This document shows positions 4,277 through 39,485 of a stretch of DNA of 64,000 nt, in pieces. Location of the stretch: IMG/VR virus record IMGVR_UViG_3300013121_000023, positions 96,001-160,000 of that record; one strand, given 5' to 3'. Position 1 is the first letter of the stretch. Each line of letters opens with the position of its first letter. This DNA is from a virus. Taxonomy: Duplodnaviria > Caudoviricetes. A program made the translations under genes and the position numbers. A model generated the notes under the pieces. It was not told where the DNA came from and did no database searches. It worked only from the letters and a program-made list of their open reading frames with translations.

Positions 4277-7200
4277 ATGACATGTACAGCTGATGGTTAC
4301 GGCGCAGGTCCATGGGGTGAAGAACCTTATGGTGGTCCAGAACCCGTGTCTGGCGATCCCCTGCCATATACATCCGAATTCGACATATTCTGTATAGGGC
4401 CTTGTGCTCAGATGGAGTTCGCTACGCTGTATTTCGGCGTGACTGTACTACCTGGCGGGGACAATAGCTTTGTAGACAGTATATCCAAGGACCAGATACT
4501 AAGAAGCGGTGGTTCTTATCCTGATGTAGAAGCTAAGATGACCATCTTGAGCGAAATACCTTCGGGTAATACGCTTGAGTGGACATGGAAGTTGATATCG
4601 AGACCTATCGATTTTGCAACTCCTGCTGACAAATATCTTGTCGTCACGATGGATGATGAGACTGGTAAGAGCTACTGCTTCTACTTCTCTGACGCCGGTA
4701 TCGCATACAGCGATGTTCTGGGTAGTGCTTCGTCTGTAATACCTGATAGTACGGGTCTGATTACGCTAAATGAGTATTGGACCTTCAGAGTGGTGGTGGA
4801 CGTATCTGTAAATAAGATACTCTTTTTCGCCACCAAGACAGCAGACCTACCGCTAACTGGACATCAGCTACGATTCATTCTTTCTACGTTCTCTTCACCT
4901 CCTTCTGTATCGTTTGACAGCGTTACCATAAGAGCACTAGGTACAGTTACGGAGACCGCATATCTAAAGCTCGACTCCATATGTATGGGCACTGGTTCCA
5001 TATATCCCAATCTCAGACCTATAGCTGACGCTGGTACTGATGTTGGTCTTCGTATGTGTTCCATCGCCAGATTGGATGGCAGCAAGAGTTACGATCCCGA
5101 GGGGGCTCCGCTCATATACAAATGGAGATTGATCGACGCTCCTTACGATAGTGAGTTTTGTATAAGCGGACACGACGGATACACACTTTCGTCTATTTCT
5201 GGTTATGTAGATAAATTCTACTCGGACGAGTTCAACCCGCTTGTGCATACTATAGCTGTTGGTGACGTTCTTCTTTTGAACGGTGTTGCGCACACTATAG
5301 AAGTGATATCAAGCGATATAGACGGGTACTTCGTTCAGGTAGCTACAGTCACAATACCTGAAGAGCTTTCGTCCAGGCCGTTCAAGGTACTGCATCAGAA
5401 CGGCATTGATTCACCTACTTCTATCAAGCCTGTCTTTTACCCTGACGTTGTAGGAATCTTCAAGTTCGACCTGGTTGTGTTCGATGGCTCTCTTTATTCA
5501 GAACCGTCTGTCACCACCTTGTTCGTGCAATCGTCCAGCGTAGCTCGTGGCGTAATCCCAGACTTGAGCCTTCTTTGGGACTATCTGTCTGAGATATGGG
5601 GGATTGTTGAAGATAGGGAGCCTATAGAGACTTACTTCTCGGCCGCCTTTCAAGCTGCGGCTTCTGAGCTACTTACTCTTTGGCAAATCGACTACAATAA
5701 CAGTCTGACGGATATACAACGAACCTTCATACGCAAGTGGCTGTCTTACAGTTTGTTGCTTGAGGAGCTAAATCCATCGACGACAACTATTCGTAAGATG
5801 TACGGCGGTGTTGCAAGCTCGCTGATTCCTGCCACTGGTTCTAACCAGAACGGCCTTACGGTAGTTATCACAAGTACAGTACACGACCCTATAACCGCTA
5901 CCTTCGTTGGTACCAATCCAATCGTACCGAGCGATTTGAGAGACCAACTACTAGAAGCACTACAGGCTATAGATGAGTCGTATGAAGTGACGCTGGTTTA
6001 TAAGCAGAGTACAAATGAATACTCTCTCAGAGTAACTAGCTCTCACGTCTTCTCTGTGGATGCTTCCAGCACATCTACCATATTCAGCGCTTCGTACTCC
6101 ACGCTAATCAGCGGTTCTTCTGGTGCCTATGCTGGGGATAAGACGTACAAGGTAGAAATAGGTCTTCTTGGACTTGACGTTGTTCAAGGAGACTACCTGT
6201 ATATAAACGGTGATGGTTACAAGATAGATAGAATCATTACCGATGCTGCTGATAGCTATGAGTACCAGAGAATAGTTCTGCTCGACGATATAAGCGCCAT
6301 GTCGGGGGCAGACTGGTCAATACTTCCCTACGTAAAATCGAAGACGCTATCGTTCTACTCGGAGATGGTTGTTTTCAATGACAAGGCCAAGTTCGATGTA
6401 ATCGATGCGAGTGGAGATTTGGTTGTCTACACGGCAGATGTACTCGGAGCCACTTCTAAATCTGAAGATGTATTGTTTTTCGATGCGACAGCTATAGATC
6501 AGTTTTTGAGCGATGCTTCCTACACGGTACAGCTAGGAAAGATACAAAGGCAGAGGTATGTACCTATTGATGAGTTGATTACAGACGTACCTTATCTACA
6601 GGAGACCATAAAAGACCCTGGAGATGAGCATGTTCTTCGCAGAAACGTTGACTTCTATATAGAAGATTTCAGGGATTTGAAGTGCATCAGGTTTGAGCAA
6701 GATATCTGGGAAGGCGTTGAGGCTGTGCCTCTTTTGTGGGGCGAGTACAACTACCTGGATAACAGGCCTGTCATAGAAGCCAACTTCGGCGCCGCCGTAA
6801 ACTTCACTTTGGACGATATGCGTTCTCTGGGTATAAGCAACCTGGACTACCTATCGTCTGTGCAGGGTCTATGGTATGCGCACTTCAAAGCACCTACTAT
6901 AAGTAATCTTCGAATAGGTGCTCAGATACTTCTCGGCCTCCCATTTGCGGAGTCAAAGAGCACGATACTTGAGATACGTAATGACTTCTCCCCCAATACA
7001 GGGAGAATACTTCTACAGGATGCTGTTAATAGCGATGTAGTGCGTTCTTACAAGTACCCGAGTCTTTTGGGCCTTGAAACGAACCCGGCTACAGGAGTTG
7101 CTTATGCTGTAGGTGATACAGTTGAGCAGTTCGCTCCGCTTGTAAATGGCGTGGAAGTAGATGATTACGTAAAGAACCCAACATGGTTTTACGCCTATAT

Positions 7201-17073: not shown

Positions 17074-17382
17074 AGGGTATATGTGGTGGTGTGTGACGAT
17101 CTCCCCAGCAGCTCACAAAAAGCTGTTCAGGGAGCACACGCACTCACCCAGTACATTCTACGTAACTTGCAAGAAGCCCAACAATGGGAAAAGGACTCAA
17201 ACGTCCTTGTGTTTCTGCGGGTGCCCGACGAGCAAGCCCTTATTTCTACAGCTGACAAGCTGAAGATTAATGGCGTTCCGGTGGAGGTGTTTACTGAGCC
17301 CGATTTGGGTAATAGGGCTACAGCACTGGCTGCGTCACCGTCAGCAGCCAAGCACCTCAAAAGATACCCACTGATGAAGTTA
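17074..17382 (+). CDS. pth2: Pth2-like peptidyl-tRNA hydrolase domain ending at TTA
   Basis: RVYVVVCDDL..QKAVQGAHA..W..LVFLRV..E..L..FTEPDLGN..TALA..YPLMK then TTA 17380-17382 right before a terminator. Confidence 0.75.
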
Positions 17383-17384
17383 CG

Positions 17385-17418
17385 AAAGCGGGCCTCGGCC
17401 CGCTTTCTTTTTAACTAC
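17385..17418 (+). terminator. intrinsic terminator
   Basis: GAAAGCGGGCC-TC-GGCCCGCTTTC plus TTTTTAACTA. Confidence 0.8.
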
Positions 17419-17487
17419 CAAACATTATTCATTTACAGACATAAGATGTGTGAGAAAAAGACGTATTCTCAAATATAGGAGAAATCT

Positions 17488-27393: not shown

Positions 27394-27406
27394 GAAAGAT
27401 TGTTTG

Positions 27407-27479
27407 TAGGACGCCCGGGACTTGAACCCGGAACCTGCGGATTAAAAGTCCGCTGCTCTACCTATTGAGCTAGCGACCC
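27407..27479 (-). tRNA. tRNA-Lys(UUU)
   Basis: cloverleaf; GCGGA-CTTTTAA-TCCGC; GGTTCAAGTCC T loop. Confidence 0.9.
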
Positions 27480-27490
27480 GAAGGAGAACC

Positions 27491-27787
27491 ATGACAACAG
27501 CAGCGCGCATGAGGGATTTGGTGGGCGAATATACCAAAAAAGTCATTAGTGAAAATGAGGAACATATAAATGAAAACTTGCTACCGATATTCCTTAAAGA
27601 CTTGTATTCTTGCATAGAATCAGCTGCATCTAAGGGACAGCGCACATACCAACATGCTATAAATCTTACAACCTTGAAGGTGCTGCATTTGGTTGTTCCA
27701 CAATTGAGAGATCGAGGTTATTTGGTAGAGTATATTACTAGTAGTACTACACAGCATCTTATGTACATGAACGTATCTTGGTCATTA
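27491..27787 (+). CDS. hypothetical protein ending at TTA
   Basis: AAGGAG SD; ...NVSWS then TTA 27785-27787 before the shared terminator. Confidence 0.6.
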
Positions 27788-27791
27788 CTTG

Positions 27792-27827
27792 GTAGCTAAA
27801 AAAGAAGAGAGCGAAAGCTCTCTTCTT
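27792..27827. terminator. bidirectional terminator
   Basis: AAAGAAGAGAGC-GAAA-GCTCTCTTCTTT between convergent genes. Confidence 0.8.
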
Positions 27828-28205
27828 TAAATACTTGAATCTATGCGCCTCAATGTATGAGGCCATTACCTCTGCAATGTAGTCGGGGGCAATTCCCCGA
27901 AGTGCATTGCGACTGAGCACTTTTGCGGTACCCTTCCCCCACGGTACCTTCACTGCCTCAATATATGGTTTGCCCTCCCCTTCTGGATGGCGCATTGTTA
28001 GCAAGTGTCTCGCTGCCTGCATCAGCAGGGAGCTTACCTCCTTCGGCTCCTCCAGCCAAAGGATGTGGATTACTGGGTGGTTCAGCACCACCCTCAATTG
28101 CTTTATGGTTTCTTCATTTGCAATATCAGTGTACCTAGTGCCCTCATGTACGAATGTCCTAATGTCCAACAGGGCCTTCCGAAGGCCCTCTATGTTTTCG
28201 TACAT
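27828..28205 (-). CDS. hypothetical protein (APEY family) ending at TTA
   Basis: AGGAGG SD; LNHPVIHILW..IAPDYI; TTA 27830-27828 abuts the terminator. Confidence 0.65.
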
Positions 28206-28318
28206 AGTACCTCCTTTCATATATCTTATGCCATTTTTACGAATAAATTAAGGTACACATAAGTAATAATCGAGGGGCTAAAGAAATGGAAGGATAGCTC
28301 CATCTCTAATAAGTGTTG

Positions 28319-28390
28319 TGCCCCAGAGAGGAATCGAACCTCCTTTAGCCTCCTTGTAAGGGAGGTGCCGGACCAGCTGGCTCCTGGGGC
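28319..28390 (-). tRNA. tRNA-Val(UAC), non-canonical D arm
   Basis: GCCCCAG/CTGGGGC acceptor; CCTCC-CTTACAA-GGAGG; GGTTCGATTCC. Confidence 0.8.
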
Positions 28391-28395
28391 AACTG

Positions 28396-28686
28396 TAACT
28401 TAGATATATCCAAAGAAAGGGAAATCAGCATACCAATGAATTGGTCTCTTCCTTTTTCTACTTCTGTTATGAATTCCGAAACCAATTTGGTTTCGGTCGT
28501 GCCATTTGACTCTATTGTCATGTTCATGTTATGAAAACATGACGATGCTGAATCTGGCCATATTGTGTGTGATACTTTATTAAACCGTTTGTGGAATAGA
28601 TGCCACGCATCTCTAAAGCAGTCTGTTACATAGACCATAACCACCAGTTCTTTTCTTTCTGTGTCCTTTATGAAGTAAACGTTCAT
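28396..28686 (-). CDS. hypothetical protein ending at TTA
   Basis: TTA 28398-28396 ends the ORF 5 nt before tRNA-Val instead of running through it. Confidence 0.6.
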
Positions 28687-28722
28687 TCTTCATTCCTTTC
28701 ATTTTTACTCATATAGTAACAG

Positions 28723-28796
28723 TGGGACCACTCGGATTCGAACCGAGAACATCCCGGTTATGAGCCGGGGGCTCTGACCGATTGAGCTATAGTCCC
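28723..28796 (-). tRNA. tRNA-CAU (Ile2-like or elongator Met)
   Basis: CCCGG-CTCATAA-CCGGG; paired G1-C72 so not initiator. Confidence 0.85.
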
Positions 28797-28875
28797 AAAC
28801 AAGCCGTTTTTAAATAAACGGCAAGGATTTATTGCATGACGTGGCCTCAGCCCGCCTTATCTATGCAATACATCG

Positions 28876-28947
28876 AGCCCACTATGGGATTTGAACCCAT
28901 GACCTACGGTTTACAAAACCGTTGCTCTACCACTGAGCTATGTGGGC
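28876..28947 (-). tRNA. tRNA-Thr(UGU)
   Basis: ACGGT-TTTGTAA-ACCGT. Confidence 0.9.
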
Positions 28948-28950
28948 AGG

Positions 28951-29060
28951 AGCGACAGGCCCGAGTCGAACGGGCGACCAACGGAAAACCGCTGCTCTAC
29001 GGGGCCATCACCAGACAGAACGTTACTTGTCTGGCTTGTGACCTACTGAGCTACTGTCGC
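28951..29060 (-). ncRNA. tRNA-like RNA with D-loop insertion and no anticodon loop
   Basis: GCGACAG/CTGTCGC acceptor, intact T arm, ~45-nt hairpin in D loop, anticodon arm reduced to GCGG-TTTT-CCGT. Confidence 0.7.
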
Positions 29061-29083
29061 AAAAAAGGCTTATATAGCCTTTG

Positions 29084-29155
29084 TGGATCGTCTAGGAATT
29101 GAACCTAGGCACAGCGCTTATAAGACGCCGCAGGGCAACCAGCCCGTCACGATCC
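29084..29155 (-). tRNA. tRNA-Ile(UAU), non-canonical D arm
   Basis: GGATCGT/ACGATCC; GGCGT-CTTATAA-GCGCT; GGTTCAATTCC. Confidence 0.8.
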
Positions 29156-29234
29156 ATAAGAGGTACACCGGAGACCCGATGAAGCCTTCCGCCAGCATGG
29201 TAGGAAGAAGGAGTGTCACCACGATGTACCTCGG

Positions 29235-29306
29235 CATCCCTGACAGGATTTGAACCTGTGACCCGGAGATTAGAAATCTCCTGCTCTTCCGCTGAGCTAC
29301 AGGGAC
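29235..29306 (-). tRNA. tRNA-Arg(UCU)
   Basis: GGAGA-TTTCTAA-TCTCC. Confidence 0.9.
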
Positions 29307-29544
29307 ATCTACGCCTTCACTCATATTTCTTATTGCGCTATTTATTTGATTTTTTCTTACGGTAGCTAAAAATAGATAGGGTTTGCTGATATAGGAGTAA
29401 GTTGGCCCGCCGTCATGATCGCCGTTATACCGGATGGAGTCTGGAGTACAGCTACTATCAACCGGGCCGAGAAGATAGATTTACAACGAACTGGTGTGGT
29501 TCGTATGACTAACGGTCTTTCGGGGCGCCTCATCAAGACCGCTG

Positions 29545-29623
29545 TGCTCTTGGCAGGAGTCGAACCTGCAAATAATAAAGCCGCTTTTGAAACGGCCGCG
29601 TCTGCCTATTTCGCCACAAGAGC
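29545..29623 (-). tRNA. tRNA-Leu(CAA), short variable region
   Basis: GCCGT-TTCAAAA-GCGGC; Leu-type GGCGAAATAGGCAGACGC D arm. Confidence 0.85.
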
Positions 29624-29682
29624 TTTGGCCGTCACCCCCCACACCAACTACTAGAGCTGTGTGGGGGGGGGGTTTCGTAGGT

Positions 29683-29781
29683 AGACCCCGAGTTAGAAAG
29701 CCGTTCTGCATCTTCAGTATTCGGCGAAGAAAAAGAGAGTTGCACTCTTTTCGGGCGTGTATGGCTTTCTTGGTGGGGTCT
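29683..29781 (-). ncRNA. Y RNA-like element 2 (T-arm containing)
   Basis: terminal stem AGACCCC/GGGGTCT and AGAAAGCC/GGCTTTCT; internal AAGAG-TGCAACT-CTCTT; shares motifs with 29871-30016. Confidence 0.5.
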
Positions 29782-29865
29782 TGGAAAGCGAAGAGGAATT
29801 GAACCTCTTATCTCCATTTCGGTAGTTGGCCTAGATGGATGGTTTTTGCCTTTAACCTACGCTTC
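29782..29865 (-). ncRNA. tRNA-like RNA with 17-nt anticodon loop
   Basis: D stem GGTT/AACC; TCCAT-(17 nt)-ATGGA; AGAGG-TTCAATT-CCTCT; ends CCA. Confidence 0.6.
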
Positions 29866-29870
29866 ATAAT

Positions 29871-30016
29871 GAGACCCGAGTTACTGCACCATTGTCCTTG
29901 TTAGGACTGGTTTTGGTTACCAGTTGCCGACCACCGGCACCTACCCCTTATACGGGGTAGCTAGGATTCGAACCTAGTTTTTGGGGTTGCGTGTAGGATG
30001 CAGTTGTTTGGGTCTC
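29871..30016 (-). ncRNA. circularly permuted tRNA-like RNA inside a long closing stem (Y RNA-like)
   Basis: order T arm, closed acceptor hairpin, D arm, anticodon arm; ends paired GAGACCC/GGGTCTC and ACTGCA/TGCAGT. Confidence 0.7.
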
Positions 30017-30018
30017 GG

Positions 30019-30100
30019 TGCTGAGAGAGGGACTCGAACCCTCACGGTTTTACCCGCCGGTACCTAAAACCGGGGCGTCTACCTATTCCGCCACCTCAGC
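30019..30100 (-). tRNA. tRNA-Leu(UAG)
   Basis: CCGGT-TTTAGGT-ACCGG; long variable arm. Confidence 0.9.
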
Positions 30101-30174
30101 AAGAAAGGGTGTAAGTAACGTGTGTAGGGACGAACGGCGAAGAACATCCAAGTACTCACGTTAAGCACACCCTG

Positions 30175-30253
30175 TGGGGTAGATAGGGATCGCACCTATC
30201 AGCTCTGGGCAGCGGTTTTACAGACCGCCTGAAGCACTAGCTTCGTCTACCCC
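30175..30253 (-). tRNA. tRNA-Tyr(GUA), atypical D and T loops
   Basis: GGGGTAG/CTACCCC; GCGGT-CTGTAAA-ACCGC; T loop TGCGATC. Confidence 0.75.
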
Positions 30254-39394: not shown

Positions 39395-39413
39395 CTTTTT
39401 AGCGTTTCGTTAG

Positions 39414-39485
39414 CGCGGGTAACGGGACTTGAACCCGTACATAAGGATTTAGAATCCTATGCTCTACCAGTTGAGCTATACCCAC
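39414..39485 (-). tRNA. amber suppressor tRNA (anticodon CUA)
   Basis: GTGGGTA/TACCCGC; TAGCTCAACTGGTAGAGCA; TAGGA-TTCTAAA-TCCTT; GGTTCAAGTCC. Confidence 0.85.

Follow-up and report, generated by a model that had tools for sequence, protein, structure and literature searches.

Can a gene that has kept the acceptor, D and T arms of a tRNA, and has lost the arm that reads codons, still make a working RNA? This question is raised by a 110-nucleotide (nt) locus on the minus strand (28951-29060) of the window, i.e. the whole 64,000-nt stretch of viral DNA analysed here (Duplodnaviria; Caudoviricetes), which corresponds to positions 96,001 to 160,000 of IMG/VR record IMGVR_UViG_3300013121_000023. 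A cluster of nine tRNAs (27406-30253, minus strand) houses the locus, which is called the mimic below. A preliminary description, made from the letters of the sequence, had read it as a non-decoding, tRNA-shaped RNA without an anticodon loop and with a hairpin inserted in the D loop. We hold with moderate confidence that the mimic is the gene of a stable, tRNA-shaped, non-decoding RNA, originating from a class I tRNA of Thr, Lys or Gly type, which binds a tRNA-recognising factor. It is probably a working non-decoding RNA and not a dead tRNA gene.

Anatomy of the tRNA-like RNA

The gene and its parts are given below by window coordinates, while positions on the minus strand (p) are obtained as 29061 minus the coordinate.

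28951-29060, minus strand: whole tRNA-like gene, 110 nt including the discriminator U; 141 bits with R1, a covariance model built from the mimic itself
29054-29060, minus strand: 5' strand of the acceptor stem (G1-C72, C2-G71, G3-C70 and onwards), with 7 of 7 pairs formed with 28952-28958
29042-29053, minus strand: U8 and A9, 5' strand of the D stem and start of the D loop (A14 G15 U16 A17 G18 G19)
29001-29041, minus strand: 41-nt insert (a hairpin) in the D loop, after G19
28993-29000, minus strand: G-U-A21, 3' strand of the D stem and A26
28981-28992, minus strand: mini-hairpin of 4 base pairs (bp) with a UUUU loop, replacing the 17-nt anticodon arm
28959-28980, minus strand: 5-nt variable loop and canonical T arm
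28951-28958, minus strand: 3' strand of the acceptor stem and discriminator U73

The preliminary description called the acceptor stem, the D stem and the T arm perfect, and indeed all stems are fully paired. The acceptor stem (p1-7 with p103-109) consists of 7 Watson-Crick pairs out of 7, the D stem (p10-13 with p64-67) of 4 out of 4, and the T arm of 5 out of 5, the latter closing a loop U-U-C-G-A-C-U of the usual UUCRA type. Partners are present for the contacts U8-A14, G15-C48, G18-U55, G19-C56, U54-A58 and G53-C61, as are A9, G45, G46 and A21, and the conserved A26 is retained. Since the canonical core nucleotides are all in place, the standard tertiary contacts of the tRNA core and elbow can form. 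Folding of the entire RNA yields -50.5 kcal/mol (z = -4.7), a value that none of 200 shuffled sequences equals.

Two sites are remodelled, and both make closed hairpins without mismatches. At the first, the anticodon arm is replaced by a mini-hairpin GCGG/UUUU/CCGU, followed by the variable loop U-G-G-U-C; with an arm of 12 nt compared to 17 in a tRNA, the reported absence of an anticodon loop holds. At the second, the D loop carries an insert (p20-60) between G19 and G-U-A21, which forms an 8-bp stem closed by a 10-nt loop and may gain five additional pairs across an internal loop. This is indeed a hairpin as described earlier, although its length is 41 to 43 nt depending on the choice of borders, not about 45 nt. 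Compared with the tRNA family, the mimic thus has the acceptor, D and T arms with the conserved core nucleotides, and lacks the 5-bp anticodon stem and the 7-nt loop with U33 and an anticodon. ARAGORN does not call the gene, and the Rfam tRNA model RF00005 (gathering threshold 29 bits) gave no match to it in a search of 700 nt, even at E <= 10.

Several other readings of the structure were rejected. The insert sequence occurs once in the phage genome, which rules out a repeat or mobile element. Taking the long hairpin as the true anticodon arm and the mini-hairpin as a variable arm fails, as the D stem encloses the long hairpin and the 'variable region' would measure 36 nt. The 10-nt loop as an anticodon mimic, a 6-nt kissing palindrome, a K-turn and a sarcin-ricin motif were all considered, and none rises above chance. 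The tRNA-like domain of a transfer-messenger RNA (tmRNA), which combines an acceptor and T arm and a reduced D loop with an mRNA-like part, was likewise discarded, with a single Rfam fragment of 5.8 bits and no tmRNA called by ARAGORN.

Origin of the gene and recurrence of its design

Without the insert, the 69-nt core of the mimic is identical to the phage's own tRNA-Thr(UGU) at 52 of 69 positions, and to its own tRNA-Lys(UUU) at as many (about 75%). The 12 nt at 28989-29000, comprising G-U-A21, the 3' strand of the D stem, A26 and the first four nt of the mini-hairpin, are identical to those of tRNA-Lys, and 15 of 16 nt around this same region match tRNA-Thr. The mini-hairpin itself equals the anticodon arm of tRNA-Thr minus five loop-side nt, with one substitution. 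Most acceptor pairs and all T-stem pairs are unlike those of tRNA-Thr and tRNA-Lys, yet they are fully paired in the mimic. In related phages, the best matches to R1 are ordinary tRNA-Gly(CCC) and tRNA-Thr genes. Judged by these similarities, the mimic is a descendant of a class I tRNA of Thr, Lys or Gly type.

Its sequence appears, so far, to be unique to this phage. Mimic-specific patterns, exact as well as degenerate, had no match in viral contigs, where a looser D-loop pattern returned only tRNA fragments preceding whole tRNAs; a pattern for the flanks had no match in metagenome contigs. R1 retrieved only ordinary tRNAs of 73 nt from 40 whole related phage records. Phages of 160-210 kb encode many relatives of the neighbouring SNF2-type helicase, of which the closest is 64% identical; as a single query against viral contigs, this helicase had no close match. 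The helicase-related phages show no synteny in the tRNA cluster. The preliminary description had proposed a homologue search and named a sequence unique to this genome, together with the lack of a processed transcript, as the mark of a recent pseudogene. The first half of this mark is present in the scans and the 40 genomes; the design, as opposed to the sequence, recurs elsewhere.

This recurrence was found with a pattern that fixed the D arm, an insert of 30-55 nt after two G's, an arm region of 10-18 nt (19 in a tRNA) and the start of the T arm, and that left the pairing of the acceptor stem, T stem and mini-hairpin free. It matched 28 metagenome loci and three viral loci. Chance matches, an element of Patescibacteria (CPR) and archaeal intron-bearing tRNAs were discarded; the last of these, from DPANN archaea, are true tRNAs with introns and a different thing, so an archaeal-type intron reading was dropped. 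About seven unrelated sequence families with both a D-loop hairpin and a shortened arm were left. They come from gut-phage contigs of 117-175 kb, from a GC-rich phage contig (between the terminase and portal genes), from two related soil contigs and from three further contigs, in one of which the RNA lies immediately downstream of a Ro60 (TROVE) gene. The mimic has the hairpin of 30-55 nt after G18G19, the arm of 10-18 nt and the intact acceptor, D and T helices that define this set, its membership being by design. Applied to representative genomes from 185,579 prokaryote species, the pattern gave no example.

When the recurrent examples are aligned with the mimic, 98.9% of 189 cells are paired and 16 of 22 pairs show changes on both sides, a level of pairing reached by none of 500 shuffles and with slid registers nowhere near it. 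The examples had been picked for a paired acceptor stem, whereas the T stem and the mini-hairpin were unselected; these are paired at 100% and 95.6%, respectively. All eight D-loop inserts fold as hairpins. Two sister pairs are informative as well: in L138 and L145 the tRNA bodies are identical and the hairpin tips remodelled, and the sole difference seen between L140 and L146 is a change from G-U to G-C in the acceptor stem. These comparisons show that unrelated phages and metagenome contigs repeatedly carry one and the same specific design, which is undescribed and is missed by standard tRNA finders.

A control pattern with a full-length anticodon arm matched 14 viral loci, none of them a phage tRNA with a real D-loop insert. 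One of the matches, from a giant virus, does have such an insert: in this metagenome-assembled genome (L185, 1967-2187), a tRNA-Ile(UAU) present twice keeps its anticodon arm intact and has about 33 extra nt in the D loop, possibly an intron at a non-canonical site. A third pattern, with a normal D arm and a shortened anticodon arm, matched at least 112 viral loci. Among these are at least 29 distinct, well-formed tRNA-like genes in viral contigs (L189-L300) with a canonical D arm and the arm cut to 11-16 nt, typically to 4-5 bp and a tetraloop. Anticodon-less tRNA bodies are therefore common in phages, with the D-loop hairpin marking a rarer subset. The 86 open reading frames (ORFs) neighbouring 26 anticodon-less tRNA-likes share no family; one of them holds an RF-1 domain and one a Tad2-like anti-defence domain.

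Two settings of look-alikes are worth recording. On contig L159 (3103-5280), the Ro60 gene (TROVE and vWA domains) is followed by three consecutive non-decoding tRNA-likes that differ in build. Of these, one combines a D-loop hairpin with a mini-arm, another has a 6-nt loop on a 6-bp stem, and the remaining one has its anticodon region enlarged by a long insert. The link between the design and Ro60 was abandoned, being seen in this one look-alike only; the whole 177-kb genome of the present phage has no TROVE match, nor have five other phage records. In a gut phage with a look-alike, a RAGATH-1 hammerhead ribozyme (79.6 bits; L143, 1567-1640) is found about 0.9 kb away, in a stretch of about 1.4 kb without ORFs of 90 amino acids or more (L142, 11380-12900).

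Proposed mechanism and competing explanations

The surroundings of the mimic suggest how it could be expressed. It sits 3 nt upstream of tRNA-Thr(UGU), with the following features around it:

29061-29082, minus strand: weak hairpin followed by a U run, abutting the 5' end of the mimic, terminator-like (read by eye)
28948-28950, minus strand: 3-nt spacer C-C-U between the mimic and the next gene
28875-28947, minus strand: tRNA-Thr(UGU), 70.4 bits, probable co-transcript of the mimic
28803-28822, minus strand: terminator-like hairpin downstream of tRNA-Thr (terminator scan)

The hairpin at 29061-29082 lies just downstream of tRNA-Ile(UAU) and was not called by the consensus terminator scan; its loop is a TATA-rich hexamer, a candidate -10 box. 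Based on the flanking hairpins, the mimic and tRNA-Thr may be one small transcription unit. Transcription of the tRNA cluster would include the mimic and probably yield a dimer of it and tRNA-Thr. RNase P would then cut at the 5' end of the mimic and at that of tRNA-Thr, the latter cut freeing the 3' end of the mimic, after which the leftover C-C-U would be trimmed and CCA completed by the CCA-adding enzyme. Such processing is to be expected because the acceptor stem and elbow are intact; more generally, the body is intact at the features recognised by RNase P, the CCA-adding enzyme, T-loop modifiers and elbow-reading proteins.

The mimic could thus accumulate as a stable RNA and occupy a factor that reads the body, the elbow and the acceptor end of tRNAs. 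With the anticodon arm collapsed to a 4-bp stem and a UUUU loop, it would never enter decoding and might act as a sponge or an adaptor. The D-loop hairpin may serve as a second binding surface, having presumably been grafted after G18G19, the one D-loop pocket that projects outwards without breaking the L-shape. In E. coli, a tRNA became undetectable when an engineered aptamer was inserted ahead of G18 (PMC5397188), from which it follows that D-loop insertions are not generally tolerated; the mimic spares G18G19. Candidate partners are a host defence enzyme that targets tRNAs, or an enzyme that processes, modifies or charges them. PARIS, retron Eco7, Septu, OLD and Schlafen-type nucleases are described as anti-phage systems attacking tRNAs. 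As many bacterial defences attack tRNAs, non-decoding tRNA bodies are natural candidates for decoys or adaptors. While the non-decoding, tRNA-shaped RNA of the preliminary description is supported by the anatomy and by the recurrence of the design, its suggested role as a decoy for anticodon nucleases is unlikely, at least for enzymes that read the anticodon loop, since this loop is gone. Factors reading the tRNA body or the acceptor end are candidate targets of a decoy. The preliminary description also put forward, as possible roles, a decoy for synthetases and an RNA that binds ribosomes at stalled codons.

Several observations weigh against a working, factor-binding RNA. The insert alone has z = -1.6, which is not significant. 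A terminator-like hairpin stands directly upstream of the mimic, and no transcript evidence for it was found: a search of sequencing runs returned parts of the cluster in 20 rows from 10 studies, with no RNA run listed. No orthologue turned up in the pattern scans or the 40 related genomes and, with the nearest helicase relatives just 64% identical, the gene may be young. The recurrent examples are alike in design and not in sequence, so convergence is possible, and they had been chosen for a paired acceptor stem. Finally, as the neighbourhoods of anticodon-less tRNA-likes have no common theme, they do not indicate a partner.

The most serious competitor is a decaying duplicate of a Thr/Lys-type phage tRNA that lost five nt of the anticodon loop, took up a 41-nt insertion by chance and has no function. 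The uniqueness of the sequence among the 40 relatives and in all pattern scans speaks for such a pseudogene, as do the close correspondence of the mini-hairpin to a shortened tRNA-Thr anticodon arm, the frequent presence of partial tRNA fragments beside phage tRNAs and the missing RNA evidence. Decay is, however, difficult to reconcile with 20 stem pairs without a mismatch, a tertiary core with every base kept, and acceptor and T stems that have diverged from every paralogue and are still fully paired. Moreover, the insert folds and occupies the only D-loop site that tolerates one, the same two changes recur with covariation in unrelated sequences, and D-loop inserts were absent from the viral control scan where the anticodon arm is intact. 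We therefore regard a pseudogene as a possible, though rather doubtful, explanation.

Alternatively, the mimic could be a cis-acting, tRNA-shaped 5' leader of the transcript that it forms with tRNA-Thr, giving this transcript a stable start and RNase P sites and having no job once released. T4 is known to make dimeric tRNA precursors, and this explanation would fit both the 3-nt gap to tRNA-Thr and the flanking hairpins (the upstream one with a U run, the one after tRNA-Thr terminator-like), which suggest a two-gene unit. Yet a leader needs no intact elbow, tertiary core or extra hairpin, and the other examples of the design are not found beside tRNAs, except for the one next to Ro60, which is followed by further tRNA-likes. 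A leader function is therefore unlikely.

Next, a carrier of amino acids outside translation was considered, charged with glycine or threonine for a transferase in the manner of the staphylococcal non-proteinogenic tRNA-Gly. The mimic has the full bacterial glycine acceptor set, U73, G1-C72, C2-G71 and G3-C70 (PMC9976931, Table 1), as well as the threonine pairs G1-C72 and C2-G71 (PMC9976931), and the best R1 match among relatives, a tRNA-Gly(CCC), points in the same direction. However, the glycyl- and threonyl-tRNA synthetases also need the anticodon bases C35/C36 or G35/U36 (PMC9976931), which are gone from the mimic; there is no transferase gene nearby, and the other design examples have different acceptor ends. 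This makes a carrier role very unlikely.

The last explanation starts from the genetic code of the phage. In 68 ORFs of at least 250 amino acids, TTA occurs 1.1 times per 1000 in frame versus 16.3 and 8.9 times out of frame, and 24 of the 39 in-frame TTA codons fall within the last tenth of their ORFs. TTA acts like a stop codon throughout this phage genome, e.g. at 17083-17478 of the window. An in-frame TTA, shortly followed by a terminator hairpin, would close the gene of the phage's PTH2-family peptidyl-tRNA hydrolase. The whole phage genome contains no RF-1 or PCRF domain and no release-factor homologue, and ARAGORN finds no UUA-reading tRNA in it. That the phage reads UUA as stop without visible release machinery adds interest to its odd tRNA-shaped RNAs. 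Two partial relatives (L071 and L072; GC 0.51) have 0.6 TTA per 1000 in frame versus 5.4 out of frame and may use the same code; no tRNA was found in these fragments.

Related phages combine PTH2 with odd tRNA-likes. In seven related genomes, a PTH2-family gene directly adjoins a pair or trio of them, including one whose A34-type anticodon (AAU, AAC, AAA or AAG) sits in a loop that a 31-39 mismatch widens, and one without a usable anticodon, owing to a long stem with a tetraloop or a loop of 5-6 nt. In G006 and G007 (helicase identity 51-58%), a GNRA or GGAG tetraloop caps the perfect 8-bp stem that forms the anticodon arm of such tRNA-likes, and tRNA-likes of further relatives have anticodon-arm loops of 5 or 6 nt. 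The loci of PTH2 and tRNA-likes are:

L106, 5473-6081
L108, 1065-1679
L117, 1474-1978
L101, 75-582
L100, 1652-2160
L115, 9059-9891
L109, 1553-2132

At the first of these, a 112-nt tRNA-like RNA ending in ACCA (5887-5998, minus strand) stands between the anticodon-less tRNA-like and the A34-type tRNA; its acceptor stem and T arm are paired, its first hairpin is non-canonical and its middle arm is very long. The present phage also encodes PTH2, 11.6 kb from the mimic.

Hence, the mimic might be part of a UUA-stop machinery that meets ribosomes waiting at UUA and, with PTH2, helps to release the peptide. Apart from the TTA statistics and the missing release factor and UUA-reading tRNA, the phage-encoded PTH2, the position of PTH2 beside non-decoding tRNA-likes in the seven relatives and a U-A-A, complementary to UUA, in the 10-nt loop of the mimic could be cited in its support. 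However, any given triplet falls in a 10-nt loop by chance in about 12% of cases, and the arm bearing this loop leaves the D loop and would be about 8 to 10 layers too long for the decoding site. The phage's own PTH2 lies at a distance, TTA serves freely as a sense codon in other carriers of the design (at 30-35 per 1000 in the gut phage), and relative G007, which has the PTH2 module, has TTA inside ORFs. A general link between the design and a TTA-stop code was rejected on these last two grounds. Of the explanations considered, a role in UUA termination is the least probable, and it is just as improbable that termination proceeds without a protein factor by the mimic handing peptidyl-tRNA to PTH2, with the PTH2 and tRNA-like modules of the seven relatives forming one ribosome-directed system.

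Known tRNA-like RNAs and the wider genomic setting

A stable, non-decoding RNA as favoured here would have counterparts among known phage RNAs. The best comparison is RNA1 of T5, a 'tRNA-like stable RNA with unknown functions' (with RNAI and RNAIII as neighbours), which resembles the mimic in its position in a phage tRNA cluster, abutting tRNAs, and in having a tRNA-like acceptor and T arm without a usable anticodon arm. It differs in its length of 144 nt, its class II (Leu-like) body, its enlarged anticodon region and the lack of a D-loop hairpin. The species 1 and 2 RNAs of T4 (rnaC and rnaD) are small stable RNAs at the end of the tRNA cluster, without an assigned function since the 1970s. 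The canonical T arm of rnaC, closed by an acceptor-like stem, is similar to that of the mimic, but rnaC and rnaD measure 119-139 nt, have no canonical D arm and adopt another overall fold. The mimic shares the features of these cluster RNAs, namely a location in the tRNA cluster on the same strand, and an acceptor and T arm without a decoding arm. In a distant blastn search of the cluster against 50,697 phage records, only tRNA-level matches were obtained, with no T5 or T4 among the best 20 of 649. Stable tRNA-like phage RNAs such as T4 species 1 and 2 and T5 RNA1 have thus been known since the 1970s without an assigned function, and the mimic adds a specific design to them.

The phage's own tRNA-Thr(UGU) and tRNA-Lys(UUU) and the bacterial tRNA-Gly have the acceptor, D stem, T arm, variable loop and core in common with the mimic, whereas a canonical class I tRNA has a 7-nt anticodon loop and no 41-nt D-loop hairpin. 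Outside phages, the viral tRNAs of murine gammaherpesvirus 68 (MHV68) and mascRNA are also tRNA-shaped, processed by RNases P and Z, and CCA-tailed, and are neither charged nor decoding; they differ from the mimic in their eukaryotic setting, their unrelated sequences and the lack of a D-loop hairpin. The YrlA Y RNAs (RF02553) are non-decoding as well, with tRNA-like D and T arms and tertiary contacts, and are substrates of RNase P, TruB and DusA (PMC4201824). However, YrlA is circularly permuted, with its ends at the 'anticodon' side and a loop-closed acceptor stem, while the mimic has the normal order and free acceptor ends. In YrlA the permuted tRNA-like domain lies inside a closing stem made by the 5' and 3' ends, and its gene is found no more than a few kb from a Ro60 gene, which the present phage lacks. 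An Rfam match to YrlA of 28.7 bits (threshold 69) was discarded as an artefact spanning the 3' half of the mimic and the 5' half of tRNA-Thr, and Rfam has no family to which the mimic could be assigned. A term search in a review on non-canonical natural tRNAs (PMC7609411) turned up no mention of a form such as the mimic.

The phage record itself is complete, with a compact genome of 177,132 bp and direct terminal repeats, and sequencing runs containing this stretch were obtained from activated sludge, from digesters, from soil and from a river. None of the contigs from four runs covers the whole mimic, with one X15 contig reaching 29045. In the soil run X7, two phage contigs (2740 and 602 bases) have their ends at 28932 and 29062 and so bracket the mimic exactly; assembly may have broken off there at words shared between tRNAs, or strains may vary at this site. 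A lone tRNA with anticodon CUA, of the amber-suppressor type (39413-39485, minus strand; 67.5 bits), is located 9 kb from the cluster, although the ORF statistics do not suggest read-through of TAG.

The cluster contains further unusual RNAs on the minus strand. An 84-nt tRNA-like gene (29782-29865) has a paired T arm, an encoded CCA and an over-long loop at the anticodon position, and is called by neither ARAGORN nor the Rfam tRNA model. A 146-nt RNA (29871-30016; z = -5.4) has the layout of a YrlA-type Y RNA, yet no Rfam match at E <= 1: within a long closing stem lie a D arm and an anticodon-like arm, along with a T arm and a closed acceptor-like hairpin. Finally, a 99-nt RNA (29683-29781) has a closing stem in common with the neighbouring 146-nt RNA.

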